Positions 13,175 through 41,205 of a stretch of 64,000 bases of DNA are shown one piece after another; positions within the stretch are counted from its first letter, which is position 1; every line of letters begins with the position of its first letter. The notes under the pieces are model-generated. The model searched no databases, was not told the origin of the DNA, and worked only from the letters and a program-made list of their open reading frames with translations. Source of the stretch: a candidate division WOR-3 bacterium UBA5631 (lineage in GTDB: Bacteria > Hydrothermota > Hydrothermia > UBA1063); NCBI GenBank assembly GCA_002421425.1, contig DIJZ01000020.1, forward strand, positions 825 through 64,824, written 5' to 3'. The translations under genes and the position numbers were made by a program.

Positions 13175-13178
13175 TGTA

Positions 13179-24046: not shown

Positions 24047-24057
24047 TAGGCTATAAT
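24029..24057 (+). promoter_or_regulatory. Sigma70-like promoter of the rpsP-trmD-rplS operon
   Basis: TTGAAA (24029-24034), 17 nt spacer, TATAAT (24052-57), then GGAGG and a GTG start at 24084. It is embedded in the rpe 3' end. Confidence 0.5.
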
Positions 24058-25841: not shown

Positions 25842-26190
25842 AAAAGAATTTATGAGGACTGACATTCCAGACTTTGGACCCGGTGACACTGTCAGGGTTC
25901 ATGTGAAGATAAAGGAACTAAAAGAAGACCCAAAATCAAAACAGCTGGTAGAAAAGGTTAGAACCCAGCCCTTCGAAGGTGTTGTAATCAGAAGAAGGGG
26001 AAGTGGACTTTCAGAAACTTTCACTGTCAGAAAGGTTACCCAGGGAGTAGGAATTGAGAAAGTTTTTCCTGTCCATTCGCCAGTCATTGAAAAGATCGAA
26101 GTTCTTAGAAAAGGAAAAGTTAGAAGGGCAAGGATTTACTATCTAAGGGAAAGAAAAGGCAAGAAAGCAAGAATTCGTGAAAAGATTTGA
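25819..26190 (+). CDS. rplS: 50S ribosomal protein L19
   Basis: [31 protein letters not shown]..., preceded by GAGGAGGAGG. The ORF track's TTG at 25801 is an upstream extension. Confidence 0.9.
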
Positions 26191-26623
26191 GGTAATCTTT
26201 TTCCTTATTGTCTTTGCCTGCTGCTCCGGACCGAAGAAGATAAATATAGCAAAACCTCTAACTCAAATCAAGATTAAAAATAGGATTCTTTATGTCCGTA
26301 TAGCTTCTTCTCCAGAGGAATGGGAAAAGGGATTAATGTTCACTGAATCCCTTCCAGACTCCGAAGGGATGCTCTTTATTTTTCCTGAACCCAGAATAGC
26401 ATCCTTCTGGATGAAAAACACCCCCATAGACCTTTCCATCGCATACATTGACTCCTCTGGAATTATTCAGGAAATTCACGACCTAAAGGCATATAGCGAA
26501 GATCCAGCTATCTCAAAAAGCCTGGTCAAATATGCCCTTGAGGTAAATAAAGGATGGTTCACGGAAAACCAAATCCACATATTAGATACTGTAGAATTCC
26601 CTGAGGAATTTAAATCTCCCTGA
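26177..26623 (+). CDS. DUF192 family protein (secreted or lipoprotein)
   Basis: N-terminal hydrophobic plus CC; core ...[29 protein letters not shown] is DUF192-like. Confidence 0.55.
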
Positions 26624-26651: not shown

Positions 26652-27206
26652 TTAGAACTGAACTCTTGGTGCTTCCCTCTCTCCAGGCTCTCCTATCTCG
26701 AAGAAAGTCTCCGCTTTAAAGCCAAACATTGAGGCTACGATATTAGATGGGAACACCATGATTCTCGTGTTATAGTCTCTGACCACAGCGTTGTAATATC
26801 TTCTCGCACTCTGAATAGCCTCTTCAATGTTGGAAAGCTCCTGCTGAAGCATAATGAAGTTTTCGTTGGCTTTGAGATTGGGATAGTTTTCAACAACCGC
26901 AAAGAGCTGGCGCAGGGCCTGGGTCAACACATTCTCGGACTTCATCTTCTCATCTGGTCCCTGAGCTTGCACGGCCATTTGCCTTGCTTTAATTACGTTT
27001 TCAAGGGTTGTCCTTTCATGGGCGGCATAACCTTTAACGGTTTCTACCAGGTTAGGAACCAGGTCATGTCTTTTCTTCAGCTGAACATCAATATCTGCAA
27101 AGGCATTCCTGACGAGAACTTTCAGTCGCACAAGGCTGTTGTAGATGGAAATGAATACTACGAGAAGAATTCCAATTATTAAAAGTGCTATTAGAAATCC
27201 GCTCAT
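26652..27206 (-). CDS. lemA: LemA family membrane protein
   Basis: N-terminal TM then NSLVRLKVLVRNAFADIDVQLKKRHDLVPNLVETVKGYAAHE, the LemA signature. Confidence 0.8.
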   Translation of the reverse strand: MSGFLIALLIIGILLVVFISIYNSLVRLKVLVRNAFADIDVQLKKRHDLVPNLVETVKGYAAHERTTLENVIKARQMAVQAQGPDEKMKSENVLTQALRQLFAVVENYPNLKANENFIMLQQELSNIEEAIQSARRYYNAVVRDYNTRIMVFPSNIVASMFGFKAETFFEIGEPGEREAPRVQF

Positions 27207-27565
27207 TTCAAAAATCCTTTCCTGAAATACACGGCGTCATCAAGGTTCCTCGCACCGTATATACCTACTTTCTCTTTCCCTCTGACCTCCATCCGGATGA
27301 AGACGTCTTCCCCAAATTGCGGTAAATCCTTAAAATTAAAACTTCTCTTGTCAACTTTCACAGGTCTTTCGTTTATGTACACGTAATTAGAATCACTGGA
27401 GACCCCCATAAACATACCGCTAACGGTATTAATGAGCGCCTCATGCTCCTCCTCGGTAAGTACGCTTTTCTGCAGAACCTTAGGCATTATAACACTCTGA
27501 GTAACCTCTATGCCGCCGGTCTGCCCAAAAATTATCATTGAAAATATTATCGCGATCATATTCAA
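27203..27565 (-). CDS. Hypothetical small exported/membrane protein, last gene before lemA in the pilus operon
   Basis: 120 aa; N-terminal hydrophobic segment MNMIAIIFSMIIFGQ. ATGA overlap with lemA. No recognisable family. Confidence 0.4.
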   Translation of the reverse strand: MNMIAIIFSMIIFGQTGGIEVTQSVIMPKVLQKSVLTEEEHEALINTVSGMFMGVSSDSNYVYINERPVKVDKRSFNFKDLPQFGEDVFIRMEVRGKEKVGIYGARNLDDAVYFRKGFLK

Positions 27566-27571
27566 ACCTCC

Positions 27572-30500
27572 TTAAAAGTTTGCTGGTCTCCAGATTCTGG
27601 CACCACTTTTTGGACTGAAAGGAAGTTCCGTCTGAATCTGAACAATTTCACCAGTAGCCGTTTGCACAAAGGCCGTAGCTTCCTGTCGAGAACCAATCTG
27701 AACTGCAGGGGATGCAGGCATACCTTCCACCTGAATTTTCGTGATCGCATATTGCTGCAGGTTCAATCCAAGAGGTGCATTAGAGGCGGCAGTACCAGTT
27801 TTGTAAAAGAGAACATATAGCCACCCCTGACCACCAAATCCGCAGGGATCATCTACAACCTTGTATGTAGTGAAAAATACAGCGCCACCAAGAACCAGAG
27901 GAAAGTTTAGACTTTTCTCCCCGGCAGCCAGTTGAATGTACCAGCCCTTATATTTCCGGTTCACTGAATCTACGAAGGCCGCATAGGAGAGATTCCCCAT
28001 TCCCGGAATATTTTCTACCGTAACATTTCCCGAAGCTGTATCCGCTTTGACTCTTATGGCTGTGGCATTTAGAAAATCTGACAGGGAATGGCTTGGCGAT
28101 GTTTGGCTTGTGTATCCGCCATTCCAATAGTTATCCCTAAAACCGATGAAATAATGGTTCAGGTTATCCGCCTCATCCTCGTCGGTGAAGTACTTTCCGC
28201 TTCCGAAGAAGACCCAGAGGTTTCCATACTCATCCATTGAGACTGCAGACCCGGACGTAAGTGGCCTGTCAAGCCTTACTGCCATTGAAAGCTGCCAGTC
28301 ATTAGGATTTATTTTGTTACCTGTAACAATTCTGTAAAGAGCACCTTTTTCATTTACAGTGTTGCCCTGCGTTTCAAAATAGGTTGTCGGAAGATAGATT
28401 ACGTCACAACTATAATCAAGCCTGACGTCAACTGAAACGGGGTTACCACAGAAGGCCCCAACAGTCTGATTTGAAGGGTAAGGAATCGTAATTTTTCTAA
28501 GAAGCTGACCAGTGGCAAGGTCAAGGATATAAAAATATGCATTCTGATCAGAACTATGGCCAGTTGGAGTACTGGTGGTACCTGATCCAAATACAACAAA
28601 CCACTTTTCCTGACCGCCCTCTATAACTTTCAGCACCGACGGATAAGATATCGTATATCCAAGATCTGGATCTGTGAACTCCCACAGAATTCTCGGGTTA
28701 TCTGGGTTTGAAATGTCCAGCATAAAGTATGAAGACTTAAAAGTATTTATGCCAACAGTAATTGGAGTTCCACCAAACCTCATCCCTACGATGGCCACAG
28801 TACCCCAACCCTCAGGGTGGTCTCCATCATCAGCAAAGATCTTGACATCGGTTATCTTTGGCTTCAGATCAACGTAATACACGTGGCAGTACCGTGGGTC
28901 CCTAAGCCATTTGAGATGTGGTAAAAGGTTCATAGGAATAACTGCCCAGAGCTCTTCTCCAAGATTCTTTCCCAGGCCTCTGAGCTCCCTTTGAGCAGTA
29001 TCAAACACACCCGCATTGAAGGCATGGAGCATGCCGTCGTTTGCCCCAACTAATACAATATTTCGCCTGTCTTTCTTCTCGTTATAGAACTCTCTGTAGG
29101 AAACGTCATCATAGATCAAATCATATCTTTCTGTTGGTTTCCCAACAAAAGACGGCGTCGAATAAACTATATCACCAAGTTTCCAGACTTTGTTTGGCTC
29201 ATAAAGTCTTGAACGCCATTCAGGATTATTGTATTCAACACCTCTAATGTATTCAATCAAGGAATCCTTGAAGGCATCAGACCCCTGCAAATACTGTGAA
29301 AAGACAGTCCGGTTGGAAACTGTAAAGTCCACAAGATTAAAGGTAGACCCACTTTTCACTACAGCTTTTATGTTTCTCCGAGCTGGGTCAGCGTTCAGAA
29401 GTCGAGTACCCGCGTTCCAGAGAAAGTTCAACTCCCAGATTCCTTTCTCGTCAACCTTGTAGATAGGAGTATCATTTTCCACATACCATCTCTCAGCCTT
29501 TGTTTCGTTCCCTTCAACCTTGAATTTTATTATGTAATCATTATCAGTGAGTTTCGCATTACCGTCGGTATCTTCTCTCAAATTTCCGTATTTATCAACG
29601 AAGTAAGCGCCAAGCTGACCAATCCAGTTCAACTCACCAAAAACAGTGTTGATGGAGGGCTGGAAGAAGGCCTGATACATAGTTCCCTCACCTTTTTGAG
29701 TTTGAGAAATGACCGATACAGCAGTAGCAGAACCTACTCTTCTCATAATGTCGAGAATAGCGTTCATTATTGCTCTTTCTACTTCCCATCCGTCCTCAGC
29801 TTCATAGTAAGTATCAGGTACACCATCGCCGTTCTGGTCCCACTCTCTATCCAGATCCGGCCTTCTATTTCCATTGTAGTCGATAAAACCGCCATCCTTA
29901 CAAGCTTCTCTTAAAAGGCCATGCCCTCTTCCAAAGACATAGACACCGTACAGTGTAAGTTCCTGGGTACCAGCTATGCCTGCTCTAAGGTCATTGGTGT
30001 GCATCCAAAGAGCCACATCGTCAAGATAGTGTCCGTTGTAAGGATCAATACTGCCATCTATGTAAGAAGGTTCGTTTCCATCACCATCGTAGTCACCCAC
30101 ATACTGCTGAAGTTTAATGTCCCTATCCCTTGTAGCTTCACCATCGGTGAGCAGTAATACAAAGGACTTTCTGCACCAGTAGGTGCTATCCATCGGATCC
30201 CATTGCTTCCCTGTTTTATAATTTGTTTTATCAAAATAAGGTGCCCTTTGCTGGAAATACCCTGCTGTTTCAAGAAGACACTCTGCCAGAGGTGTCCAGG
30301 TTTCCGGGCTTGTATTTTGTATTGCATTTACAAAGTCACTCATCGAGGAATTGTCCTGATAATAGCTCGTCACGCTACCTGCATCATGGTCGTTTAAACC
30401 ACTCACTTCCTGCCCTGACGCATTCATCTCCTTTCCATTACCTTTATTGTTAAAGTTTATGAGCCAGAATCTCGCTGCATCATCATCCCATCTGCCGTCG

Positions 30501-31150
30501 GCATCTTTATCACCAAGCTTTTGAATTACACCTCGGGAGAAGGTTGAGTCAATCTCAACCTTATTTGTAGCGGAAGAGATCACCGTACTCCAGTTTTGGG
30601 TCCCTACCTGACGCCTTTCTATTGTAATATTATTTGTCTGTCCTGCAGTTCCCCATACATAAAATTCGTACTGATAATCAATTCCCCCCACTCTGAAAGT
30701 TGCATATTTTGTCCAATTACCTCTGGATTCACACTCAATCGTATGAGCAAAACCGCGAACACTTCTGGCCAAAGCTTTACCGCCAACTAAAACCTTCTTG
30801 AGAACGCTCATTCTGGACATTATCGCCCAGTTCAGTACGTTTCCTGGCCAATAGTTATAATAATCTGCAGGTTGATTTACAGGCTCCCAACCGTTGGAAT
30901 ACCGATAAACGGCGTTCGGATCAAAATATCCATAGTAACTCCGAGATGGATCGTAATTATCATATGTGTTTGCAGACCAGTTCCAGTAGGCAGGATCCCC
31001 CATGGAACCGGAATTATCCATTATTACAAAGATATTGGGATTTACTTTCTGGGCTAAAAAGGGTGGAATGTTGCAGGGCATTCCAGCCTCCTGAGCCCAT
31101 AGCCACGACATTCCTAACAATATAATTAACAGAATTTTTTTGTTTAACAT
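27572..31150 (-). CDS. pilY1: PilY1-like type IV pilus tip adhesin (N-terminal vWA plus C-terminal PilC/PilY1 beta-propeller)
   Basis: 1192 aa. Signal peptide ...SWLWAQ. MIDAS IFVIMDNSGSMGD. C-terminal FFGSGKYFTDEDEADN propeller motif. Lies downstream of pilVWX-like genes. Confidence 0.7.
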   Translation of the reverse strand: MLNKKILLIILLGMSWLWAQEAGMPCNIPPFLAQKVNPNIFVIMDNSGSMGDPAYWNWSANTYDNYDPSRSYYGYFDPNAVYRYSNGWEPVNQPADYYNYWPGNVLNWAIMSRMSVLKKVLVGGKALARSVRGFAHTIECESRGNWTKYATFRVGGIDYQYEFYVWGTAGQTNNITIERRQVGTQNWSTVISSATNKVEIDSTFSRGVIQKLGDKDADGRWDDDAARFWLINFNNKGNGKEMNASGQEVSGLNDHDAGSVTSYYQDNSSMSDFVNAIQNTSPETWTPLAECLLETAGYFQQRAPYFDKTNYKTGKQWDPMDSTYWCRKSFVLLLTDGEATRDRDIKLQQYVGDYDGDGNEPSYIDGSIDPYNGHYLDDVALWMHTNDLRAGIAGTQELTLYGVYVFGRGHGLLREACKDGGFIDYNGNRRPDLDREWDQNGDGVPDTYYEAEDGWEVERAIMNAILDIMRRVGSATAVSVISQTQKGEGTMYQAFFQPSINTVFGELNWIGQLGAYFVDKYGNLREDTDGNAKLTDNDYIIKFKVEGNETKAERWYVENDTPIYKVDEKGIWELNFLWNAGTRLLNADPARRNIKAVVKSGSTFNLVDFTVSNRTVFSQYLQGSDAFKDSLIEYIRGVEYNNPEWRSRLYEPNKVWKLGDIVYSTPSFVGKPTERYDLIYDDVSYREFYNEKKDRRNIVLVGANDGMLHAFNAGVFDTAQRELRGLGKNLGEELWAVIPMNLLPHLKWLRDPRYCHVYYVDLKPKITDVKIFADDGDHPEGWGTVAIVGMRFGGTPITVGINTFKSSYFMLDISNPDNPRILWEFTDPDLGYTISYPSVLKVIEGGQEKWFVVFGSGTTSTPTGHSSDQNAYFYILDLATGQLLRKITIPYPSNQTVGAFCGNPVSVDVRLDYSCDVIYLPTTYFETQGNTVNEKGALYRIVTGNKINPNDWQLSMAVRLDRPLTSGSAVSMDEYGNLWVFFGSGKYFTDEDEADNLNHYFIGFRDNYWNGGYTSQTSPSHSLSDFLNATAIRVKADTASGNVTVENIPGMGNLSYAAFVDSVNRKYKGWYIQLAAGEKSLNFPLVLGGAVFFTTYKVVDDPCGFGGQGWLYVLFYKTGTAASNAPLGLNLQQYAITKIQVEGMPASPAVQIGSRQEATAFVQTATGEIVQIQTELPFSPKSGARIWRPANF

Positions 31151-31169
31151 TTTGCACCCCTTTCCTAAT

Positions 31170-31619
31170 TTATTGTGCTATTACACCAATAACCCTTCTA
31201 TATAGGACTTCAAGTTCAATTCTATCCTCAGGTCCAGCCTGGGCCCGAGAAAGAATCCCGTAGAATATCGCGGCACCGCCTCCACCCACTCCTCTACCCA
31301 ATCCTTCATAAGCTGCTGCAAATTCTAGAGAACCTCCCTTCTCCGTTACCACAAAAAGCCTTTGAGGAGTTGCCACTACGTTTCTTCCCCCGATCTCCCG
31401 ATTTATCGCATCCATTTGTCTCCCCTCATTCTCTGCAGCCCAGATCTCACTTACCGCCAGTTCAACCCCTCCCTCAGCAGCTTCGAAAGTAGTTAAAGCA
31501 CGTCTTGAAATTCCGGTTATCTTCATGCCTCTCTGCACCAGAACCGCTGTAATACCAGCTATAACTACAATAAATGCAGTCACAAGTATTACCGTAATTA
31601 AAGCAATTCCCTTTCTCAT
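31170..31619 (-). CDS. pilX: PilX-like minor pilin
   Basis: MRKG|IALITVILVTAFIVVIAGI, a prepilin-like hydrophobic N-terminus lacking E5 (as in PilX). ATGA overlap with the upstream gene. Confidence 0.5.
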   Translation of the reverse strand: MRKGIALITVILVTAFIVVIAGITAVLVQRGMKITGISRRALTTFEAAEGGVELAVSEIWAAENEGRQMDAINREIGGRNVVATPQRLFVVTEKGGSLEFAAAYEGLGRGVGGGGAAIFYGILSRAQAGPEDRIELEVLYRRVIGVIAQ

Positions 31620-32518
31620 CGCACATTCCTCACTTTTACGTCTATGGAATAAAATCTTCTCCGCCTCATCTTTGCTTCTGTTCCGAGATTGTAGGTATGG
31701 TCCTCAACTGTGATCTGGTCTTGGGGGAACGTATATTCTCTGTCTATGTTTCCAACAAGAACGATATTGGGCCTTACGGTCTTTAGTAAGGAATTGAAAT
31801 CTGCAATCCCCTGAGGATTCCATAGCCTTTCACCCGTGTTCTCTACACCATTCCTGTTAAAATCTACCCAGTACGCCAGCTGAAAGTCCTCAACCCCCGT
31901 TAGAAAAGGTTCATTGTTCCTGAATAATGTGTCATTTCGAAGCCAATAGATTACCTGCGCTACCTGTCCGCCAGGAACTGTATATACGAAGTTTCCTGCA
32001 GCAGTCTGGACATTTTGCGAAAGAGAAAGCCTGTAGGCTGGCAGGGTATTGTAGGTGAGAACCTCTCTATCTGTCACACGAACGGGCTGGGTAACTATAA
32101 GGTTCTTTTTATCGTCCATAACAATAACATAGTCATCCTTATGGATATCTACCCTGTCGTCACCCCACCTTCTCACAATAATCTCATTAGCGGCAAAGAT
32201 ATCAAGGGTATAACTCCACCTTGTGGTTCCACCAACCACGAAGCCGGTGCTTCTAAGTATCAAAGAGTCTGGAGCATTGCTTTTGTTAATTCCGGCAACC
32301 GGGTTTACCGACGCCGGGACTCCATATCCAGCCATCAGAATATCCCACTTCATAATGTTAAAGGCCTGCTGAATGTCGGTTTGAAGCATCGAGATGCTCT
32401 GCTGTGTAGATGCAGTTCGGATCTGAGAACGGTATACCACAAAAACACCCGTGAGCAAAACACTCAGGATACCTAATGCTACAATTATTTCAATTAGTGT
32501 AACTCCCCTTCTCTTCAT
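31616..32518 (-). CDS. pilW: PilW-like minor pilin
   Basis: MKRRG|VTLIEIIVALGILSVLL, a class III signal with E5. 300 aa. Confidence 0.6.
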   Translation of the reverse strand: MKRRGVTLIEIIVALGILSVLLTGVFVVYRSQIRTASTQQSISMLQTDIQQAFNIMKWDILMAGYGVPASVNPVAGINKSNAPDSLILRSTGFVVGGTTRWSYTLDIFAANEIIVRRWGDDRVDIHKDDYVIVMDDKKNLIVTQPVRVTDREVLTYNTLPAYRLSLSQNVQTAAGNFVYTVPGGQVAQVIYWLRNDTLFRNNEPFLTGVEDFQLAYWVDFNRNGVENTGERLWNPQGIADFNSLLKTVRPNIVLVGNIDREYTFPQDQITVEDHTYNLGTEAKMRRRRFYSIDVKVRNVR

Positions 32519-32563
32519 GAGTTAAGAACTCCTTTTGCAGTGTAGCGCATATTTCAGGATCCC

Positions 32564-32983
32564 CTACATCTCATACTGGCTCCTTACCGTTGTAACTCTG
32601 TATTCCCTTTGAATTCCGGTCCTCGCATCAAGCCATCGGATTATTGTTCTGATAGTGCGAGTTCCATCTGCATTTTCTGCAATATTCCACATTGTCGTGA
32701 AAGCGATGTTATCAAGAGTATCAACCACGGAATGGTCTGGGTTGTCAACATCATCAAGATCATTGTTATCTCCGTCATTAGCAAGTTCAGGAGCATCAAA
32801 AGATACTCCCTTCAGAGCTTCAGAATGGCGCTCTGCCAGAAACCGGGCATTTAACATCTGATTCTGGAGATTGTTGAGCCTTATCGTAGCAATGGCCAGA
32901 GGAATCACGCCCATAAGTCCAATTGTGAGTATAGTAAGTGCCACCAATACTTCGATCAATGTGTAACCTTTACTTTTCTTCAT
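32564..32983 (-). CDS. pilV: PilV-like minor pilin
   Basis: MKKSKG|YTLIEVLVALTILTIGLMGV. The internal Met is the preferred start; the ORF track extends to 33028. Confidence 0.6.
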   Translation of the reverse strand: MKKSKGYTLIEVLVALTILTIGLMGVIPLAIATIRLNNLQNQMLNARFLAERHSEALKGVSFDAPELANDGDNNDLDDVDNPDHSVVDTLDNIAFTTMWNIAENADGTRTIRTIIRWLDARTGIQREYRVTTVRSQYEM

Positions 32984-33512
32984 GCCATGCTCCCCTCCAG
33001 GAGTATACCCTGACCTGTCCAAAGGCATTTACTCCGATACACATCAGATTCCTGTTATCGTTGATGTAAATTTCACCCGGCGTCTCACAGAGGCCGAAAA
33101 CGGAAAATACCACCATGTTGTTTTCAGACCCCGTGCCAAACATAATCCCATCGGAGTCAATAGTACCTCCACCTAAACTAGTAGCAGAACCCAATCCGCC
33201 AAGATTCACCCTAGGACTAAAATAATTAGGATAACTGGCGAGGGTAGAATCAAGATTTGGCAAAGGCTTGTTCTGGTCCTCTATTCTAATTGTCACATTT
33301 TTACCATTAAAAATCAACGCTCGCCTGTTGCTGGCAGACATAGCTGTGGTTCTCTCTGTCTCAAGAAGGGCTTTGACCTTGAAGGCCTCATTTCGTAGCC
33401 TGTTTCTTGCAACCCACCGGTTACCTCCCCAGAAGGGAATCGCAATAACGACACTCATAATAAAGATCACAAGCAATATCTCAATGAGAGTCATGCCCTT
33501 CTTGAGCTTCAT
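32970..33512 (-). CDS. fimT: FimT/FimU/GspH-like minor pilin
   Basis: MKLKKG|MTLIEILLVIFIMSVVIAI; 180 aa. Confidence 0.6.
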   Translation of the reverse strand: MKLKKGMTLIEILLVIFIMSVVIAIPFWGGNRWVARNRLRNEAFKVKALLETERTTAMSASNRRALIFNGKNVTIRIEDQNKPLPNLDSTLASYPNYFSPRVNLGGLGSATSLGGGTIDSDGIMFGTGSENNMVVFSVFGLCETPGEIYINDNRNLMCIGVNAFGQVRVYSWRGAWHEEK

Positions 33513-33523
33513 CTTTCACATCC

Positions 33524-34720
33524 TTATTCTCTCACAACACTTGGTGTGAGGAATATCAAAATCTCTGACTTGCTCTTATCTACTTGATCTCTACCGAACA
33601 GATATCTGATAATAGGGATCCGCAGAATCAGCGGTAATCCTGACTTTGCTCTTTTGTCCTTGTCAACGATAACTCCACCTATCATGACTGTTTCGCCGTC
33701 GGAGATGGTAACTTTTGTCTCAGCCCCTCTTTTTGATGTAATAGGCTGACCTGCAGCTGAGTATCCAGTTAGATCGCCTGTCTCGGTCTTGATAGCCATA
33801 ACTACTTTTCCATCCGGGATTATATGTGGGGTGACTTCCAGAAGAACACCCGTCTCTTCAAACTGGACAATGGTGTTTCCAGCCATATCCCTTGATATTA
33901 CCGGAACCCTAATTTTTGAGTAGATGGATGCCTTTTCATTATCAAGTACCATAATCTTCGGTTCTGATATGGTATTTGCTTTGCTCTGCCCCTCAAGAGC
34001 TTCAATGGCTGCAGCAACTCTGTGCACATTCGTTCCGATGTATGCAACGGTAAGGAAATTTGGATTTTCGGGTGCATAATCATCAAGATTGACCGTCTGC
34101 CTATTTACATTCAACTGAGCACCCGGGTTACCACCATAGGTCAATCCAAACTGCGTACCAAGTTTTCTTGATTCATTGTAATCAACTTCGACAATTTTCC
34201 CCTGTATTAGAACCTGGGGATAAGGTTTATCTACCTGACTCAAAAGGTCTTCAATCTTGTAAATGTTGACTCTCAAATCGGTTACAATAAGGGCATTGGA
34301 AGATTCGTCTACCTTTATGTCACCTCTTGGAGAAAGTTGTGACTTCAGGACTTCAGCAACTCTGCGTGCGTCGGCATACCTCACCTTCAAAACCTTGATA
34401 TCCAGATCTGCGGCGGTTTTCAGCTGACCGAACTCCGATTGAGTCATAATGGTAATAACCCCCTCACTCTCTATCATTGCAAGACCATACGCATCGAGTA
34501 GAGATTTAAGTGCTAGCCTCCACGGAACATCCTTGATATTGAAAGTAACCTTCTGCGTAACGGAGGGGGTAGTAATTATATTAACTCTCCCGACTTCTGC
34601 AAAAGCTCTTAAAACAGTCTTTATATCCGCCTGCTCAACGCTCATAGTAATTCTGGCTTCCTGCGCGTAGACCAGCGACACAGCCATCAGTAAAAACACA
34701 AATTTTTTAAATAACTTCAT
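33524..34720 (-). CDS. pilQ: Type IV pilus secretin PilQ (short form, no AMIN domains)
   Basis: Signal ...SLVYAQ. Secretin C-domain ...VMIGGVIVDKDKRAKSGLPLILRIPIIRYLFGRDQVDKSKSEILIFLTPSVV. Confidence 0.8.
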   Translation of the reverse strand: MKLFKKFVFLLMAVSLVYAQEARITMSVEQADIKTVLRAFAEVGRVNIITTPSVTQKVTFNIKDVPWRLALKSLLDAYGLAMIESEGVITIMTQSEFGQLKTAADLDIKVLKVRYADARRVAEVLKSQLSPRGDIKVDESSNALIVTDLRVNIYKIEDLLSQVDKPYPQVLIQGKIVEVDYNESRKLGTQFGLTYGGNPGAQLNVNRQTVNLDDYAPENPNFLTVAYIGTNVHRVAAAIEALEGQSKANTISEPKIMVLDNEKASIYSKIRVPVISRDMAGNTIVQFEETGVLLEVTPHIIPDGKVVMAIKTETGDLTGYSAAGQPITSKRGAETKVTISDGETVMIGGVIVDKDKRAKSGLPLILRIPIIRYLFGRDQVDKSKSEILIFLTPSVVRE

Positions 34721-34734
34721 TACTAAACCTCCTT

Positions 34735-35520
34735 TTATTTTTTCTCTTCTGCTAATTTTAGTTCAATCCTTCTTGTGAATCCAAAATCTACAGTGGCAAA
34801 AATTACACGGTCGGACTCAATTTTCACAACCCGACCGTTTCTAACCCTATCCCCTTCTTTGAGTACGTAACCTACTCCCCTCCGATCCTGCAGCAGGGCA
34901 ACGTCTCCCTCTTCACTTCTAATCACACCAAGGAGTTTTGCCTCACTAACGTTCAAAAGTTCCTCTTCTCCTTCCATAGCTTCGGGCCGGAAAGGATCTT
35001 TTTTACCTCTTGACGAGTAGAAATACTTTTCTCCCAGTTCCAGTTTGTAAGCCTCTGCTTTGGGTTTCTCGGAAGGTTTCGCAGGCTCAGTATAAGTTTT
35101 CTGAGGTTCTTGCGTCTCCGTTCTATACGGTTCCTGGGTAACGCCTCCTACGAGAATCGTCAGCTTCCCCTCAGACTGTGCAACGGTGTAGGTCCGAAAG
35201 CCATCTACATCGAGGACAACTCTAGCCACAGGCACCGGGTCTCTTTGAAACTGTGCTCCTCTCATACGCTCAATGCCGCCTCTACCAACTACAAAGAGCT
35301 TCTCGCCGAGACCATAAGATACATTTATAAGGTCAATGACAATCCTGGGAGGGTTGGAAAGAGTAAAATGTTTGTATTCAGGGATACCCCCTGTGAATTG
35401 AAGCTCAACAAGAATACCTTCAGGTGTCTCCTTTATCGAATATGCACTGAGAGTATTTTGAGCCTGCAGAACTCCAGCAGAAAAGACAAAAAACGCTATA
35501 AAAGATAGTATTCTCTTCAT
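34735..35520 (-). CDS. pilP: AMIN-domain plus PilP-like pilotin/alignment protein
   Basis: Signal ...GVLQAQ. N-terminal half carries AMIN-like motifs (PPRIVIDLINV; ARVVLDVDGF). C-terminal ...EGDRVRNGRVVKIESDRVIFA resembles the PilP beta-domain. Confidence 0.5.
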   Translation of the reverse strand: MKRILSFIAFFVFSAGVLQAQNTLSAYSIKETPEGILVELQFTGGIPEYKHFTLSNPPRIVIDLINVSYGLGEKLFVVGRGGIERMRGAQFQRDPVPVARVVLDVDGFRTYTVAQSEGKLTILVGGVTQEPYRTETQEPQKTYTEPAKPSEKPKAEAYKLELGEKYFYSSRGKKDPFRPEAMEGEEELLNVSEAKLLGVIRSEEGDVALLQDRRGVGYVLKEGDRVRNGRVVKIESDRVIFATVDFGFTRRIELKLAEEKK

Positions 35521-36101
35521 TTCTTAGCACCTCCGCTAACACCGGCCGCAGGGTTGTATATGTAGCAAATCACTGTAAGTCTACCTCTCACGGTCTGCTG
35601 ACTTTCCTTGTCAGAACCAGAAAGTCGTTCAATCTGCAAATTTTCCACACTCATTATTCTCTCGGAGTTAGCAATAAAACTTATGAAGGTCCCGAGTTCA
35701 TGAAAACCACCCTGTACATCCATACTTACAGGATATTCCACGTACAACTCTTTTGGCCTTGCTGCCTGGGGTTTGAATCCCGTAATCTGAACTCCAGAAG
35801 TTATTGCCATACCCGTTATCTGAGCAAGCCACTCCTCCATTTTCTCTTCCTGTGGAAGGTATTTCTGAGTTTCCTGCCACAGAGCAAGGAGGGAATCTTT
35901 TTCCCTGATTATCCGGTCATAATCTTTGACATAATCCCTTAGATTCTGTACTTTTGTATATTGAGTTTTATACTGGCTCTCAACTTTCTTCAGTTCCCTG
36001 GATTTTGAAGCATAAACTGAATTCCAGAGAAAAAGAAAGGTGAGAACATAAACTATAACAGCTAACAACCATATTACTATCGGCGATTTAAGTTTCTCCA
36101 T
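35517..36101 (-). CDS. pilO: Type IV pilus assembly protein PilO
   Basis: N-terminal TM, coiled coil, then a ferredoxin-like C-domain. ATGA overlap with pilP. Confidence 0.65.
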   Translation of the reverse strand: MEKLKSPIVIWLLAVIVYVLTFLFLWNSVYASKSRELKKVESQYKTQYTKVQNLRDYVKDYDRIIREKDSLLALWQETQKYLPQEEKMEEWLAQITGMAITSGVQITGFKPQAARPKELYVEYPVSMDVQGGFHELGTFISFIANSERIMSVENLQIERLSGSDKESQQTVRGRLTVICYIYNPAAGVSGGAKK

Positions 36102-36109
36102 ATTCCCCT

Positions 36110-36556
36110 CTAATCAGTTTGGCGCTTAAGGTAAATTGTTGGAAGATTAGCATCTTTCCCCGGTGTGAGAGTATATCCAGTAATTTCTCCGTATCCCGGA
36201 CCCAGAACATTATCAAAATAGAATGCCTGAATTTTGACACCAATGTTTGATACCGGAGGGAATCCCTCGTAACCTGTTGTTGGATAAACGACAAAAGAAT
36301 AATCGCCAGTAGAATTGGTAGTAGTTTCAAGGACTGGACCCGTATATGGGTAGTCAGTAGATGGATCTCCTACAAGATAAAGTCTTGCGCCCACAGCCGG
36401 TGTCTCCACAAAGGTCGTTTCATTATGAACCGTATCTATGTACGCAATGATATAAGCAACCTTACCATTTAATGTCACGGACTTGTCGACATAATCACAA
36501 GACGAAAATAAAATAGCAACCACTACTGCAATACCAAGATATAAATACTTCTTCAT
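36110..36556 (-). CDS. Lipoprotein with carboxypeptidase-regulatory-like/transthyretin-like beta-sandwich, inserted between pilN and pilO
   Basis: Lipobox ...LFSSC. LNGKVAYI...STGDYSF pattern typical of CarboxypepD_reg folds. Confidence 0.45.
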   Translation of the reverse strand: MKKYLYLGIAVVVAILFSSCDYVDKSVTLNGKVAYIIAYIDTVHNETTFVETPAVGARLYLVGDPSTDYPYTGPVLETTTNSTGDYSFVVYPTTGYEGFPPVSNIGVKIQAFYFDNVLGPGYGEITGYTLTPGKDANLPTIYLKRQTD

Positions 36557-36570
36557 AATTGAACCTCCTT

Positions 36571-38187
36571 TTATTTCAGTTTTACATTTAACTCAAAACT
36601 TGCGTACCGCTCCTCCTGACTCCCTGCAACTTCAATAGACAGGAGGCTCACTGAATCTACAATTGCTGATTTCTTGAGATTTGTCATAAATTGTGAAATT
36701 CTCATGTTAGAAAGGGCCGCACCGGAAATATTAAGATAATCCCCGCTTCTCTTCAAAGAAGAAAGCCAGCATCCTGAAGGTAGCACCCTGTTAACCTCAT
36801 CAAGAAGTTGTACGTACCTTGTCCGGCCAATTTGAAGTTCTTTTATCAAATCAATTTTTCTTCTTGCGTCTTCGATCTCTCTTTTGAACCCACTAATTTC
36901 ATCAGCCTTCTTCTGAAGTTCCACCTCTTCAGCCTGAAGAGCCACAATTTGCTTCTTCAGTCCTGAAATTCTTCTTGAAGTGCCTATCGTAAGTCCCAGA
37001 ATTCCAATAACGATGAGTAACCATATAAACAGAGCTCCGACTACATGCGGGAGTATTGAGACCTCTTCTACAGCACCCACCGCTTCCATGCCACCTTCTT
37101 GTGGTATAAGGTTTATCCTGTGTTCTTTTCTGTAAAAGTGCAAAACATCCCCGAGGACTATTGGAAGTAGATGAATATTCTCCTTGAGTCCTTTGACTGG
37201 CTCTTCAACCGCAAACAGAGTCCCGAGATCCAGGAACTTTAGGTCTACTCCGTATTTGTTCTTAACAAAGGTACCAACACCGTAGAGCTGGCTTCCTCCT
37301 CCAGAAAGATAGAAATTGAATTTTGCACCAGCCTCTCCAAGGACAGGAACGAACTTCTCCGGGGAAAGGAACCGGTCGTGTAGGGACTCCATAGTCTCTT
37401 CGAAGGAACTCTTTTCGATATTAGCAGTCGGACCATTTATAGCAACCTCTTCAGCTTCTTCTACCCTGAGATCATAGAACCTCGATAGGTTATCGACATA
37501 GGATTTTATTCCCGAGGGAACTTCGAGCATCTGTTGGATTTGTCCATCTTTAATATGGATCAACAGTGCAACTTCGTACCCCATATGGAAGAACACATTA
37601 TCACCGGGTATGTTCTTAAGCCCAAGAGCTTCTATCACCCTGTACAGAGAGACAAGATCCGTAGTAACCATTACGGGTTCCAGTCCAGAAGCTCTCACGA
37701 TGTCCATTATATCGTAAATAAGGCTTAATTTTGCCGTCCCAACAAGAATATCCACTGACTCGGCAATCTGGCTCATGCCAAGTATTTCATAATCCCTGAC
37801 AATTTCCGTCGGATCAACGTGCAACTCTTCTTTTATCTTCCAGTCCACTGCTTCAGCAAGCTTCTCTTTCTTCTTATAGTAGGGAATCACCATCGCTTTA
37901 GACTTTACCTCTCCGCCGGCAACATTTACAATAACATTCGATACATCGGTACCCATTTTGGCAAAAGCATCCCTGATTTTATCTATTAAGACTTGCCTGT
38001 CAATTATGTCCTTCCCGAGAATGACATCAGGAGGAATTTTTTCCATGGAGAAAGCCCTCAAGATGATTTCTTTCTTGACTTTCTCAAAAAGAGCTAATTT
38101 TATGTACTTTGACCCTATATCTAACACAATCACGGGTCCTCTGGCTTTCCCCTTTAAGCCTTTCGTTACATTACCGATAAAAGCCAT
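36571..38187 (-). CDS. pilMN: PilM-PilN fusion protein (actin-like ATPase-fold PilM, then TM plus PilN periplasmic domain)
   Basis: VIVLDIGSKYIKLALFE (PilM) at the N-terminus. INLIPQEGG, TM ALFIWLLIVIGILGL and a C-terminal PilN-like domain. Confidence 0.75.
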   Translation of the reverse strand: MAFIGNVTKGLKGKARGPVIVLDIGSKYIKLALFEKVKKEIILRAFSMEKIPPDVILGKDIIDRQVLIDKIRDAFAKMGTDVSNVIVNVAGGEVKSKAMVIPYYKKKEKLAEAVDWKIKEELHVDPTEIVRDYEILGMSQIAESVDILVGTAKLSLIYDIMDIVRASGLEPVMVTTDLVSLYRVIEALGLKNIPGDNVFFHMGYEVALLIHIKDGQIQQMLEVPSGIKSYVDNLSRFYDLRVEEAEEVAINGPTANIEKSSFEETMESLHDRFLSPEKFVPVLGEAGAKFNFYLSGGGSQLYGVGTFVKNKYGVDLKFLDLGTLFAVEEPVKGLKENIHLLPIVLGDVLHFYRKEHRINLIPQEGGMEAVGAVEEVSILPHVVGALFIWLLIVIGILGLTIGTSRRISGLKKQIVALQAEEVELQKKADEISGFKREIEDARRKIDLIKELQIGRTRYVQLLDEVNRVLPSGCWLSSLKRSGDYLNISGAALSNMRISQFMTNLKKSAIVDSVSLLSIEVAGSQEERYASFELNVKLK

Positions 38188-38201
38188 TCTAAAACCCCCT
38201 T

Positions 38202-39449
38202 TTATTTGCTTTCCTCAACGAAAGCATTCAAAACCTTGTTTAATAAAACTTCATCGATCTTTTCCCCTAACCTCTTGTACGTCAAAAGCTCTCTAACCAC
38301 TGTCTCAATCTTTTTCAGATTCAACCCCGGCCTTTTAACTATTTGATCAATTATGCTCACCGGAAGCCCTTCTTCACCCATAAAGTTCTTAACAACTTCT
38401 CTTTTGAGTTCCACTGTAGGCTCCTCAATCCCTATGCCCATAAATCCATTTAGTAACGACTTTATTTTCTTACTGAGAGTAGGCATATCTTTTAAAGGCT
38501 GGGCGGAAGTAATAACCACCTGTTTATCCTGCGAAACAAGTTCAGAAAGAACTGTAAAGAGGGCTTCCTGAGCGAAGTCTTTTCCAACCAGAAAATCAAG
38601 ATCATCAAAAAGAAGAAGGTCAGTGTCGCTCAACATGCCAAGGTACCTCTCCAGCTCCCTTTCAGTCTTAAGCCCTTTCAAAGTCGTTACAAACTTAAAG
38701 GCATCAATGTATATAAAACGCCTTAGCGCTTCATTCTCAAGAATATAGTTGGCAATGGACTGCAAAAGATGTGTTTTGCCCGTTCCATCATGTCCGTAAA
38801 TGAAAACCCTTCTTTCTGCTACCCCTCTGGTCTCTGCAAGGTCTTTACACAATAGAAAAGCATGCCGATTAGATTCACCGGTAACATAATTCTCAAAGAC
38901 TTTATCCTTCGCTATTAGAACTCCAATTTCTCTTCTCACTCTCTCCACACCAAACGGTTCCTGGATTCTCTCCTCTCCTCCTGCTTCGACGTAATATTTT
39001 TCGATGGCTTCCCGGATTTCGCTGATGGTTGAGATAAATGGCCTTATCTTCAAATCAGTTACGTTCTTTATCTCAGCAAGCATTTCTTTGTTAACAGGGT
39101 TTGCCATGGCAACGGCGAGAGACTTGCCCTTCTTTCTTATTGGAATCAAAAGATACTTTCTTGCAACTCTTCCTGGGATATGCTCAACTGCTTCGGGGTC
39201 TATATCAATATCCTTGAGCCTTACATAGTGAAGCATTGGAAAACTATCAAGAATGAACTTTACAAGTTGCTCCTCGTTTAGAAATCCCTTTTCCACTAAA
39301 ATCTCTTCAAGGGTCCCTCCCCTTTCCCATTGCTCAGTAAGGGCTGTTTTTATAGCTTCCTTAGTTATAACTCCGCTCTTTTCCAGCAAATCTATAAAGG
39401 TAACCTTAGTACCGGTTTTCTCATCAGCTTTCACATCTTTCCTTATCAT
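38202..39449 (-). CDS. Fusion of a T2SSE_N/MshEN-like N-terminal domain with a DnaA/Hda-type AAA+ module (no DnaA domains I, II or IV)
   Basis: Residues ~15-150 resemble the GspE/PilB N1 domain with two MshEN-like 24-mer halves (TFIDLLEKSGVITKEAIKTALTEQ and TLEEILVEKGFLNEEQLVKFILDSF). The C-terminal module shows DnaA domain III traits. These are ENYVTGESNRHAF, Walker A GHDGTGKTHLL, Walker B LLLFDDLDFL, sensor-1 VVITSAQ, and box VII/sensor-2 ...NLKKIETVVREL. Confidence 0.7.
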   Translation of the reverse strand: MIRKDVKADEKTGTKVTFIDLLEKSGVITKEAIKTALTEQWERGGTLEEILVEKGFLNEEQLVKFILDSFPMLHYVRLKDIDIDPEAVEHIPGRVARKYLLIPIRKKGKSLAVAMANPVNKEMLAEIKNVTDLKIRPFISTISEIREAIEKYYVEAGGEERIQEPFGVERVRREIGVLIAKDKVFENYVTGESNRHAFLLCKDLAETRGVAERRVFIYGHDGTGKTHLLQSIANYILENEALRRFIYIDAFKFVTTLKGLKTERELERYLGMLSDTDLLLFDDLDFLVGKDFAQEALFTVLSELVSQDKQVVITSAQPLKDMPTLSKKIKSLLNGFMGIGIEEPTVELKREVVKNFMGEEGLPVSIIDQIVKRPGLNLKKIETVVRELLTYKRLGEKIDEVLLNKVLNAFVEESK

Positions 39450-41200
39450 TGTACACTACTCCTTAAAGATTTAACCTTTTCCGCCACACTCTTAAAATTT
39501 GAATCAAAGACGTAAACCCTGGTATACAACTCCTTTGCCTCCAGAAACCTTTTCATGCTTTCAAGGGTCTGGGCAAGATAATAATACGCTTCAAGGTAAT
39601 CCTTCTCCATATATCCTACCTCCTCAACAGCCTTTCTCAGTATAACCTCAGCAAATTCTAAATCACCCCTTTCATAGAAGATCTTCCCAAGGAGTATCAT
39701 AGCCTGAAGCCGAAACCTCGGATCATTAAGCAGCTTCTGAAGTTCCTCCACCGCCGCCTGATAAAGCTTCATCTCATAGTACTCCTTCGCCACGTCAAAA
39801 GCAGGATCCTGAGGATATGGCCATTCTTCGAAAGTGAGGATGTCTTCCTTCAACTCTCTAAGTACTTTAAGTAAATACTCAAAATGTTCCCTGTCGGGTA
39901 TTCTCTCAACCCTCTCATAAATGGGTTGTTCCTCCTTCTTGCCTTCTTCTGTCTCTACCTCAGGTGGTCTCTTCTGGGTGGTTTTTGTGACAGGTTCGGA
40001 CTTTATTTCCATCACTTCCTGAGGGATCTTTAACTCCTCTCGCTTTTCTGTTACTTTACGCTTCTCTGTTTCTTTCTTCTCAGTAATCTTCAAAAATTCC
40101 TCAAAAGATTTCCTTAAAACTTCGGGGTTCTCTTCCGACTTCAAAACCTCCTCCAGAGCAGGGGGCTTCTCTTCGGTGATAATTTCCTCTTCCTTTTTCG
40201 GAACTTCTTCAGGAACAACTTTCTCCCACAGCTTTTGCTCTTCCTCAACTTCTTCAGGGACCTCCTCCTCCACTACAGTCTTGAATCCTTCCGCTGGAGG
40301 TGCCTCCTTCGCAATAACAGGCTCTTCAACTACTTGTGTTTTTTCAGATACTTCCTCAACGGGCATTGCCTCCTGCGGAGGCGGTGTCTCTACAACTTCA
40401 GGTTGCTGCAACGGGACTTCCTCAGAAGGCTTCTCAACCCCGAGGAAATCTGCAAAACCAGATGATGTGATAAAGGTTTCTGGTTCTTCCTCTTCTTTTT
40501 CCACGAATTCAACCTTTTCGACTTCTTGCTCCTCTTCTCTCTTTTTTGCAGCCTTCTTTTCCACTTCAGAAGTTCCACCGTGTTCCTCGGGTCCAAAAAA
40601 ACCACCATATGAACCAAAATCACCCTTTTCAAAGAACTCCTGAGGTTCTGCAAATTCTATGCCCCCATCCAGACTCATTATAGAAAGGGACTCTGCCAGC
40701 TCCTGTAGTCGAACAAATAACCTCTCAAACTTTGCGGCTTGCTCGGTGTTCTCCTGAATCGCATTCGCAAATTCATTTATTAATCTTAGCAGTTTACCAA
40801 CATATGTCGGGTCAATAGTCGGCAGCTTAATAAGTTCCAGTGCCCAGTCCAGTGCCTTATCGACATTCCCGTTCTCCAGTTCCATTTCTACGAGGTCAAG
40901 ATACGTATCATATTTTTCTTTATCGAGTCTAATTATCTTCTTTGCAATGGAGATAGCGATTTCTCTGAAGTCCTGTTCCTTATACATTCTGTAAGCTTTT
41001 TCTAAGTTTTCCAGCGCAAGTTCGTGGTTCTGCTTCCGAATATAAAGGTCTCCGATAGAGTTGAATACTTCGGGATCCGCTGTAACTTTTGCCAAATCTT
41101 TGAGAACCTGCAAAGCTTCATCGTACTTGCCCTGACCAATTAGTTTTTGAGCCTGCAGTTTTAGTTTTTTAACGTCAGAACCACCACTCTTAAATATCAT
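39446..41200 (-). CDS. TPR-repeat protein with central polyacidic E/P/V-rich low-complexity region
   Basis: TPR-like helices at both ends. Residues ~200-420 are rich in EEV/PEE repeats. ATGA coupling to the downstream MshEN-DnaA gene. Confidence 0.6.
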   Translation of the reverse strand: MIFKSGGSDVKKLKLQAQKLIGQGKYDEALQVLKDLAKVTADPEVFNSIGDLYIRKQNHELALENLEKAYRMYKEQDFREIAISIAKKIIRLDKEKYDTYLDLVEMELENGNVDKALDWALELIKLPTIDPTYVGKLLRLINEFANAIQENTEQAAKFERLFVRLQELAESLSIMSLDGGIEFAEPQEFFEKGDFGSYGGFFGPEEHGGTSEVEKKAAKKREEEQEVEKVEFVEKEEEEPETFITSSGFADFLGVEKPSEEVPLQQPEVVETPPPQEAMPVEEVSEKTQVVEEPVIAKEAPPAEGFKTVVEEEVPEEVEEEQKLWEKVVPEEVPKKEEEIITEEKPPALEEVLKSEENPEVLRKSFEEFLKITEKKETEKRKVTEKREELKIPQEVMEIKSEPVTKTTQKRPPEVETEEGKKEEQPIYERVERIPDREHFEYLLKVLRELKEDILTFEEWPYPQDPAFDVAKEYYEMKLYQAAVEELQKLLNDPRFRLQAMILLGKIFYERGDLEFAEVILRKAVEEVGYMEKDYLEAYYYLAQTLESMKRFLEAKELYTRVYVFDSNFKSVAEKVKSLRSSVQ

Positions 41201-41205
41201 AATGT

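Follow-up and report, generated by a model that had tools for sequence, protein, structure and literature searches.

The 64,000-nucleotide (nt) stretch of contig DIJZ01000020.1 from the candidate division WOR-3 bacterium UBA5631, the whole of which we call the window, carries on its minus strand, at positions 26652-41200, a real and conserved 14-gene type IV pilus assembly operon. The most unusual part of this operon is the product of its second gene, in which an MshEN domain of the PilB type is joined to an AAA+ ATPase domain of the DnaA domain III type, and which is routinely mislabelled DnaA. Proteins with this pairing and without DnaA domain IV form a large unnamed family that is linked to pilus genes across several uncultured lineages. 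An earlier first-pass annotation of this DNA had described the operon and had not singled out this protein, its most interesting component. We consider that the interest lies less in the welding of two sets of pilus genes into one operon than in the MshEN-DnaA-III family, in an AMIN domain relocated to PilP, and in a single-chain PilM-PilN that is like GspL.

Layout and conservation of the operon

The 14 genes are all co-directional and, with the promoter, extend over 26652-41237. In order, they encode a protein with tetratricopeptide repeats (TPR), the MshEN-AAA+ protein, a fused PilM-PilN (hereafter PilMN), a small lipoprotein, PilO, an AMIN-PilP fusion, a short PilQ secretin, four minor pilins, PilY1, a protein of 120 amino acids (aa) and LemA. 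The successive junctions, when recomputed, are -4, +14, +14, +8, -4, +14, +11, -14, +45, -4, +19, +6 and -4 nt, so that the deepest overlap is 14 nt and the widest gap 45 nt, and a ribosome-binding site of the GGAGG/AAGGAG type lies upstream of 13 of the 14 genes, the exception being the first (TPR) gene. The first-pass annotation had described a tight, co-directional array in this gene order, and the coordinates of the open reading frames (ORFs), together with Pfam, NCBIfam and profile searches, bear it out; the gene identities that it had proposed were reproduced almost item by item in one or another of these searches. The extent that it had given, 27203-41200, holds at the upstream end and fails at the other, where lemA (26652-27206) falls outside the proposed start. 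Because the GC content of the operon (43.4%) is close to that of the window (42.7%), there is no compositional sign of a foreign island.

Is this arrangement peculiar to a single assembly? The comparison of synteny in related genomes that the first-pass annotation had proposed shows that it is not: independent assemblies from WOR-3/Hydrothermota repeat this gene order, and their MshEN-AAA+ proteins are 80%, 72%, 57% and 42% identical to that of the window. Our context sample consisted of 15 fetched loci (designated L001 to L015) and the window. The genes from TPR to PilY1 are contiguous in L001, L002 and L004/L005, and in L010, L011 and L012 the run from MshEN-AAA+ to LemA is unbroken and has a convergent DUF192 gene after it. 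The upstream flanks vary, with amgK/murU-namZ in the window, a prepilin peptidase gene in L002 and L008, and holB-like genes in L004; because they differ between loci, we place the beginning of the conserved module at the TPR gene. The distant loci L008 and L014 keep the core of TPR, MshEN-AAA+, PilMN, small protein, PilO, PilP and PilQ, and in both of them two-component genes replace or displace the minor-pilin block; PilD genes adjoin the cluster in L002 and L008, and PilT-like genes do so in L008 and L014. The two-component genes stand inside or just after the pilus cluster (L008, 15775-19397; L014, 9347-10898) and include genes for a histidine kinase, for a response regulator with PatA_N and for an MglB-like Roadblock/LC7 protein, the last with a 204-aa ORF after it, a hint that the pilus is under polarity or motility control.

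Because the gene order is kept across independent assemblies, the fusions in this operon are not artefacts and the layout is typical of the lineage. The first-pass annotation had raised the concern that an assembly error might have joined pilM to pilN; the fusion is conserved in all related loci, with a length of 538-571 aa in every independent assembly examined, and the AMIN-PilP fusion is conserved likewise, so an assembly artefact was rejected as the source of either. The lipoprotein gene inserted between pilMN and pilO and the terminal lemA, both of which had been noted earlier, are present and recur in related loci. The composition had also been called non-canonical; this is correct relative to Pseudomonas, and within WOR-3/Hydrothermota the welded operon is the normal, conserved layout. 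Finally, the major pilin and pilB, pilT and pilC are missing from the window, as had been reported, and so is pilD: none of pilA, pilB, pilC, pilT and pilD was found in a Pfam scan of the long ORFs that covered the window outside 1-14 kb. When the window was searched in six frames for the prepilin leader G-x-T-L-I-E, just three copies came up, all of them inside the operon.

The 14 genes make up one predicted transcription unit with its own consensus promoter. A sigma-70-type promoter, TTGACA-17-TATAAT, lies at 41209..41237 (minus strand) and falls within the 3' end of the ORF that precedes the operon; it matches the consensus at 12/12 positions and is the only perfect copy in the 64 kb. Between the end of its -10 box and the ATG at 41200 there are 8 nt, with no Shine-Dalgarno sequence. 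A perfect promoter combined with the absence of a Shine-Dalgarno sequence points to a first cistron, the TPR gene, that would be transcribed from its own promoter and would be leaderless or near-leaderless. The geometry TTGACA-17-TAnnAT-7nt-ATG also precedes the TPR genes of L001, L002 and L004; in L008 the promoter is present, but it is followed by a 26-nt leader with GGAG. The first-pass annotation had suggested a promoter much further upstream, at 49235-49207, a site that matches at just 9/12 positions and stands in front of yfhO, and the perfect site at 41237-41209 takes its place. When up to one mismatch was allowed, four TTGACA-17-TATAAT sites were observed in the window against 0.46 expected, from which the organism appears to use canonical sigma-70 promoters. 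The three sites with 11/12 matches, all intergenic, are at 49224-49252 (plus strand), facing a plus-strand class-III aminotransferase gene, at 13610-13638 (minus), between two tRNA genes (13521-13595 and 13646-13719, minus strand), and at 24029-24057 (plus), before rpsP-rimM-trmD-rplS. Apart from these two tRNAs, Rfam matched nothing in the window, and it detected no riboswitch either within the operon or ahead of it; a terminator scan gave nothing above chance and no clear terminator downstream of lemA.

The MshEN-DnaA-like protein and its family

The gene for the MshEN-AAA+ protein (415 aa; 38202..39449, minus strand) overlaps the TPR gene by 4 nt. Pfam identified MshEN at residues 74-157 (1.9e-18) and Bac_DnaA at residues 181-334. 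Residues 20-158 align with the N-domains of Thermus PilF, Myxococcus xanthus and Geobacter PilB, and Vibrio cholerae MshE, with E-values from 1e-9 to 3e-31, and the MshEN fold, four helices followed by MshEN_C, is recognised by Pfam, by the NCBIfam c-di-GMP_motif model (NF053729) and by a Foldseek match to MshE-N (5htl). The T2SSE motor domain (PF00437) gave no match, and the MshEN part is all that the protein has in common with PilB and GspE. Residues 177-412 align with DnaA domain III only (positions 102-340 of 437 in TIGR00362); in alignments with true DnaAs, domains I, II and IV are missing, and the protein ends where domain IV would begin. In an AlphaFold2 (AF2) model with a pLDDT of 79, Foldseek gave target-normalised TM-scores of 0.86-0.88 against DnaA domain III (8bv3_A, 2z4r_A) and 0.64-0.66 against MshE-N.

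The Walker A (GTGKTHL) and Walker B (FDD) motifs, invariant across the family, are kept in the window copy. The clade to which this copy belongs has lost the box VII arginine finger (KSLL versus SRF in DnaA), and the arginine of sensor II is replaced by lysine; the long forms of the family described below keep the finger. Because the arginine finger is lost, the motifs suggest that the protein is probably an ATP-binding adaptor rather than a cooperative ATPase. The half-motifs for cyclic di-GMP (c-di-GMP) are altered as well. In an alignment with M. xanthus PilB, T17-F18-I19 stands opposite R-L-G and T46-L47-E48 opposite R-I-G, so that neither motif has its glycine at position 3 and even the relaxed pattern [RKPN]hG is unmatched. 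The glycine losses (Ile19, Glu48) and the change of the position-1 Arg/Phe to Thr in both motifs are conserved across the WOR-3 compact clade. In V. cholerae MshEN, the variants G11L and G40I bind c-di-GMP poorly if at all (Wang et al. 2016, PMC5013675). Since both glycines are lost, and in the light of these data, binding by the window protein is predicted to be weak or absent; that is, the protein is probably blind to c-di-GMP.

How widespread is this architecture? We searched 1.84 billion representatives (50% identity) with a profile and parsed the best 149 with sub-profiles. An MshEN domain is paired with a DnaA-like AAA+ domain in 114 of these 149, and the family therefore comprises at least 114 clusters at 50% identity. 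Most (88/114) are long forms with an Ala/Glu-rich linker of 45-800 aa, and 81 of the 88 keep both half-motif glycines, typically as RLG...FLG; both glycines are lost in 18 of the 26 compact forms, as in the window protein. The named long forms come mostly from Candidatus Hydrogenedentes and bear such labels as 'DnaA/Hda family' or 'chromosomal replication initiator protein DnaA'. Related architectures were seen alongside these: giants of 1248-1990 aa with a second, C-terminal DnaA-like AAA+ domain (P0122, P0123, P0146), and proteins of 550-700 aa with two tandem DnaA-like AAA+ domains and no MshEN (P0127, P0128, P0131, P0140, P0151 and others), the latter scoring as high as the family members. 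We found no paper that pairs MshEN with DnaA in such an architecture, none that links DnaA-like proteins, type IV pili and c-di-GMP, and none that links Hydrogenedentes with pilB. Nor does the combination appear in the table of domain architectures given by Wang et al. 2016, the supplement of which does not contain 'DnaA'.

Pilus genes adjoin the family gene in all 15 fetched loci and in the window. Compact forms lie beside a fused pilMN in all ten loci that have one (L001-L005, L008, L010-L012, L014) and in the window, and long or intermediate forms are found directly upstream of pilB in L006, L007, L009 and L013; pilB is followed by pilT-pilS-pilR in L006 and L009 and not in L007. The remaining locus, L015, contains PilD, three paralogous MshEN/DnaA-like genes, a gene for a 1876-aa double-AAA giant, and then PilB, so that three or four family paralogues are stacked between pilD and pilB (2681-13179). 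In L002, from the lineage with 42% identity, a GGDEF diguanylate cyclase gene and a prepilin peptidase gene (6063-7166, minus; 7556-8308, plus) lie immediately upstream of the TPR gene. The TPR gene itself is directly upstream of the MshEN-AAA+ gene in L001, L002, L004 and L008 and one gene off in L014. Its product in the window (584 aa; 39446..41200, minus strand) is cytoplasmic, with no signal peptide or hydrophobic segment found, and has TPR_16, TPR_2 and TPR_12 matches in Pfam at residues 16-75 and 496-563. Between these N- and C-terminal repeats is a centre of about 260 aa that is rich in Glu, Lys, Val and Pro (73 Glu; net charge -37).

Two other explanations of the MshEN-AAA+ protein have to be weighed. 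On the one hand, the gene might be a replication-related paralogue of DnaA or Hda that stands beside pilus genes by accident, as the database names would suggest and as might be argued from the AAA+ domain, whose closest counterpart, by sequence as well as by fold, is DnaA domain III. We regard this as extremely improbable: domain I and the DNA-binding domain IV are missing, the N-terminus is a PilB-type MshEN domain, the scores fall far below the cut-offs for DnaA (TIGR00362, 153 versus 343.9 bits) and Hda (TIGR03420, 63.3 versus 194.8 bits), and the gene adjoins pilMN, pilB or pilD in 15 of 15 fetched loci from several lineages. The protein is not a replication initiator. On the other hand, the window protein might be a c-di-GMP receptor that would switch pilus assembly on at high c-di-GMP, like MshE and PilB. 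The two-repeat helical pattern and the Gln of motif I are retained, the motifs are intact in the long-form relatives, NF053729 scores just above its cut-off (42.5 versus 38 bits), and the GGDEF gene lies near the locus in L002. We nevertheless think this explanation unlikely for the window protein, given the clade-wide replacement of the position-3 glycines, the threonines at both first positions, and the binding defects of the V. cholerae variants (PMC5013675). That the MshEN-AAA+ protein is an accessory associated with the pilus is, in our judgement, highly probable.

Components of the operon and the type of machine

What kind of machine does this operon encode? The PilMN protein (538 aa; 36571..38187, minus strand) matches Pfam PilM_2 at residues 22-331 and PilN at 460-537, and scores 81 bits against TIGR01175 (pilM). 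The chain opens with an actin-like PilM domain and closes with a periplasmic PilN domain; between them come, in this order, HRINLIPQ at residue 358, a membrane-spanning stretch (about 375-405) and a coiled coil, so that the INLIP motif of the PilN N-terminus and the transmembrane segment are retained between the two halves. Such a single-chain PilMN is the GspL architecture built of pilus-type domains. PilO (194 aa; 35517..36101, minus) has an N-terminal transmembrane segment and matches Pfam PilO at 1.5e-25, with a weak GspM match. The AMIN-PilP protein (261 aa; 34735..35520, minus; Pfam AMIN 2.6e-9, PilP 0.056) consists of a signal peptide, an AMIN domain, a linker and a beta domain of the PilP/GspC-HR type. 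When a profile of six orthologues was compared with the PDB, residues 19-153 matched the AMIN region of M. xanthus PilQ (3.6e-18) and also Pseudomonas aeruginosa and Neisseria PilQ and AmiC, and residues 160-242 matched M. xanthus PilP (3jc8_Pa, 6.7e-7). The short PilQ (398 aa; 33524..34720, minus) has a signal peptide, an N0/STN region, one Secretin_N domain and a secretin domain (Pfam Secretin 1.2e-42, Secretin_N, STN, GspD_N0), and Pfam found no AMIN domain on it. The peptidoglycan-binding AMIN domain thus sits on PilP, whereas in Myxococcus, Pseudomonas and Neisseria it sits on PilQ. Among the NCBIfam secretin models, the protein scores 258.7 bits with PilQ (TIGR02515; below its cut-off of 284.35), 201 with GspD (cut-off 351), 183 with HofQ and 103.9 with MshL (cut-off 250).

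Between pilMN and pilO, every related locus has a lipoprotein gene whose product is 137-172 aa long, and the copies align. That of the window (148 aa; 36110..36556, minus) has the lipobox LFSS|C and is predicted to be all-beta; it had no match in Pfam, NCBIfam or a PDB profile search, and its single-sequence AF2 model (pLDDT 39) was unusable. It is possibly pilotin-like.

Four minor pilins in the order H-I-J-K follow the secretin, the first three with canonical G|xTLIE leaders. The GspH/FimU/FimT-type pilin (180 aa; 32970..33512, minus; leader MKLKKG|MTLIEI) matches Pfam N_methyl, with weak GspH and ComGD matches, and the PilV/GspI-type pilin (139 aa; 32564..32983, minus; leader MKKSKG|YTLIEV) matches N_methyl at 1.8e-9, with weak PilV (TIGR02523) and GspI matches. 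The start of the PilV-like gene is most likely the internal ATG at 32983, which has GGAGG upstream of it, rather than 33028. The PilW/GspJ-type pilin (300 aa; 31616..32518, minus; leader MKRRG|VTLIEI) matches N_methyl and PilW (5.7e-4), and a PilW domain was found in the orthologues from L002, L004 and L010. The last, of the PilX/GspK type (149 aa; 31170..31619, minus; MRKG|IALITV), has a weak GspK match at residues 3-65 and Thr at +5, where Glu is usual; its position is kept in all loci, and the orthologue from L010 has a weak PilX_N match. Next comes PilY1 (1192 aa; 27572..31150, minus), composed of a signal peptide, an N-terminal vWA-like MIDAS region and a C-terminal beta-propeller (Pfam T4P_PilY1 7.3e-17, residues 658-1007). 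The vWA/MIDAS-like motif VIMDNSGSM...LLLTDGEAT was read off the sequence, and Pfam gave no VWA match; homologues named PilY1/PilC carry PF28373 (PilY1_homolog_dom) and PF05567. The operon closes with the 120-aa protein (27203..27565, minus), which has a TTG start, a hydrophobic N-terminus and no match in Pfam or NCBIfam, and with the LemA-family membrane protein (184 aa; 26652..27206, minus; Pfam LemA 2.9e-61), whose gene overlaps the preceding ORF by 4 nt. In L010, L011 and L012, too, a protein of 114-143 aa lies between PilY1 and LemA, and a convergent DUF192 gene follows. In the window a DUF192 (COG1430) gene at 26177-26623 (plus) converges on lemA, and the pairing persists where the genes beyond it differ (L010).

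We read these genes as encoding the predicted envelope-spanning and priming parts of a machine like the type IVa pilus (T4aP). The alignment proteins are represented by Pfam PilM_2, PilN and PilO and, through the orthologue profile against 3jc8_Pa, by PilP; the priming proteins are represented by three N_methyl matches, a GspK/PilX-like fourth pilin and the T4P_PilY1 propeller, and in studied systems the core minor pilins and PilY1 form the pilus-priming tip complex. The same genes could be those of a type II secretion system (T2SS), or of an MSH-type pilus, with PilMN standing for GspL, PilO for GspM, AMIN-PilP for GspC and the pilins for GspH-K. Weak NCBIfam matches to GspH, GspI, GspJ, GspK, GspM and GspC, the single-chain PilM-PilN architecture, which is that of GspL, and the H-I-J-K order, as in gsp operons, all speak for it, and the first-pass annotation had named T2SS pseudopilins as the finding that would overturn its own assignment. 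We judge it very improbable, however, because PilY1, a pilus-specific tip protein, comes directly after the pilins, Pfam gives PilM_2, PilN and PilO and not GspL, the secretin has a single N domain and scores best as PilQ, and the operon contains no GspE, GspF or GspG. The T2SS reading was therefore rejected. The V. cholerae MSHA operon combines the ATPase MshM, the TPR protein MshN and a long MshI. The reading as an MSH pilus was rejected in its turn, the sub-threshold MshL being the only Msh match in NCBIfam and the MshI, MshJ, MshK, MshM and MshN models giving none at E <= 0.01. Might the pilus serve mainly for DNA uptake (competence), with the DnaA-type AAA+ domain handling incoming single-stranded DNA? 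The short secretin aligns end to end with HofQ, a 'DNA uptake porin', and DnaA domain III binds single-stranded DNA in 3r8f, one of the fold matches. Yet PilQ outscores HofQ, none of comEA, comEC and dprA was seen in the window, and the arginine finger needed for a DnaA-type ATP filament is lost, which together leave competence as a very remote alternative.

Several features of the rest of the window may be recorded here. Upstream of the pilus promoter, which is embedded in its last 30 nt, is one ORF (41206-44233, minus; 651 aa from a TTG start, the true start being uncertain) in which a MurU-like NTP_transferase domain and an AmgK-like kinase domain of the APH type are joined; it is preceded by a NamZ (exo-beta-N-acetylmuramidase) gene, and the two look like a peptidoglycan-recycling pair. 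A protein of 742 aa encoded at 14844-17072 (minus) contains 11 LVIVD repeats (beta-propeller) together with a Por_Secre_tail, the C-terminal sorting domain of type IX secretion, and because of this protein the organism probably has a type IX secretion system; PorV and Por_Secre_tail genes were also seen in L008, L011 and L014. Three ORFs had no significant Pfam match, namely 50619-51944 (plus, 441 aa, with a marginal CobW P-loop match at E = 3.9e-4), 45872-46786 (minus, 304 aa) and 63251-63709 (minus, 152 aa). The region 2194-13174 (minus) contains ORFs of 1461 and 1269 aa and then small ORFs, which by size and order alone resemble rpoC-rpoB and rplL-rplJ-rplA-rplK-nusG.

Proposed role and comparison with known systems

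How might the MshEN-AAA+ protein act on the pilus machine? As an overall explanation, we consider it likely that this is a T4aP-like operon in which the MshEN-AAA+ protein is an accessory of the machine. The short PilQ would form the outer-membrane channel, AMIN-PilP the connector, and PilO and the GspL-like PilMN the inner-membrane alignment proteins; the motor proteins PilB and PilT, the platform protein PilC, the major pilin and the prepilin peptidase would be encoded elsewhere in the genome. Because their genes overlap by 4 nt, indicating translational coupling, and because both products are cytoplasmic, the TPR and MshEN-AAA+ proteins probably act together as accessories, the TPR protein with its long acidic spacer being the likely partner or adaptor. 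In PilB/GspE-type motors, the MshEN/N1 domain is at the end facing the inner-membrane platform, the N1 domain of GspE has its binding partner in the PilM-like domain that GspL exposes to the cytoplasm, and PilB is bound by PilM. A recent review mentions, as a hypothesis, that the N1/MshEN domain of PilB engages inner-membrane platform components (PMC11656802). Since the window protein has a PilB-type docking domain and members of its family are always encoded beside pilB or pilM, its most likely docking site would be the PilM face of the fused PilMN, or else PilB, and its ATP state, and perhaps its oligomeric state, might control or scaffold motor recruitment. In the long, Hydrogenedentota-type forms upstream of pilB this control would probably respond to c-di-GMP, because their MshEN motifs are intact; the compact form of the window would have dispensed with c-di-GMP sensing and with cooperative hydrolysis dependent on the arginine finger.

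The specific mechanism of docking and licensing is speculative, and we offer it as an analogy. Only tentatively, too, do we suggest that MshEN-DnaA-III proteins are an unrecognised, widespread class of type IV pilus regulators that would occupy or license the PilM/PilB interface by means of the motor's N-domain and an AAA+ switch, in two versions, namely a long form of the Hydrogenedentota, encoded upstream of pilB, that would sense c-di-GMP, and a compact, finger-less form of the WOR-3/Hydrothermota that would be blind to it and that has a TPR partner in the pilMNOPQ operon. Several points weigh against our reading. The docking step is taken over from GspE-N1/GspL and PilB/PilM, and a complete machine is assumed, pilB, pilC, pilT and pilA not having been located for this genome. 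The lipoprotein, the 120-aa protein and LemA are tied to the machine by conserved linkage alone. NF053729 scores above its cut-off on the window protein, so the loss of c-di-GMP binding is a prediction from sequence, and the context sample of 15 loci and the window includes several from the same lineages and has no negative control set.

Type IV pili are among the most widespread surface machines of bacteria, and the recruitment and gating of their motors are known from a few proteobacterial cofactors, such as PilZ/FimX, and from c-di-GMP acting on PilB. The present results point to a large, unstudied family of such cofactors in uncultured phyla, in which the N-domain of PilB would have been re-used on a DnaA-type nucleotide switch. 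They also correct a systematic mis-annotation, in that hundreds of proteins named 'DnaA' would not be replication initiators. The modular rewiring seen here, in which AMIN has moved to PilP and one GspL-like chain unites PilM with PilN, bears on the interconversion of T2SS and type IV pilus architectures, and the WOR-3/Hydrothermota gain a predicted pilus-based capacity for surface or adhesive life.

Pairs of an accessory P-loop ATPase and a TPR protein are known in V. cholerae MshM/MshN and in ExeA/GspA, and PilZ-FimX are known as cofactors of PilB. The window pair is like these in that a nucleotide-binding cytoplasmic accessory and a TPR protein are encoded with secretin and alignment genes, and in the concept of a motor cofactor; it differs in sequence, no relationship having been found between the MshEN-AAA+ and TPR proteins and MshM, MshN or ExeA (AAA_22 reached just E = 0.0075). 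With DnaA domain III and Hda, the MshEN-AAA+ protein shares the AAA+ initiator-clade fold, a Walker A motif of the form GxGKTHL, Walker B and the lid, but the window clade is without the arginine finger, has Lys in sensor II and lies among pilus genes rather than near dnaN or oriC. With the N-domains of MshE and PilB (5HTL; M. xanthus PilB 3JC8; Thermus PilF 6F8L) it shares a four-helix tandem motif followed by an alpha/beta subdomain; here MshEN is mounted on a DnaA-type AAA+ domain instead of the T2SSE hexameric motor ATPase, and the RLG triads are degenerate (TFI, TLE). PilMN resembles GspL of the T2SS in its single-chain plan, with a PilM-like domain in the cytoplasm, a membrane-spanning segment and a PilN-like domain in the periplasm, and departs from it in its Pfam PilM_2 and PilN matches and in keeping the INLIP peptide, within an operon that has PilY1 and a secretin closest to PilQ. 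Compared with the T4aP systems of P. aeruginosa and M. xanthus, a single operon unites the PilMNOPQ and FimU-PilVWX-PilY1 sets, PilM is fused to PilN, AMIN is on PilP and not on PilQ, PilQ is only 398 aa long with one N domain, an extra lipoprotein gene lies between pilMN and pilO, and the TPR and MshEN-AAA+ genes lead an operon that a small ORF and LemA close. The families themselves are nonetheless the same as in those T4aP systems, as are the internal orders M-N-O-P-Q and H/U-V-W-X-Y1; the pilins have class III signal peptides, PilY1 has a propeller and an N-terminal vWA-like MIDAS motif, and the AMIN-PilP orthologue profile directly matches both PilQ (in its AMIN region) and PilP of M. xanthus.

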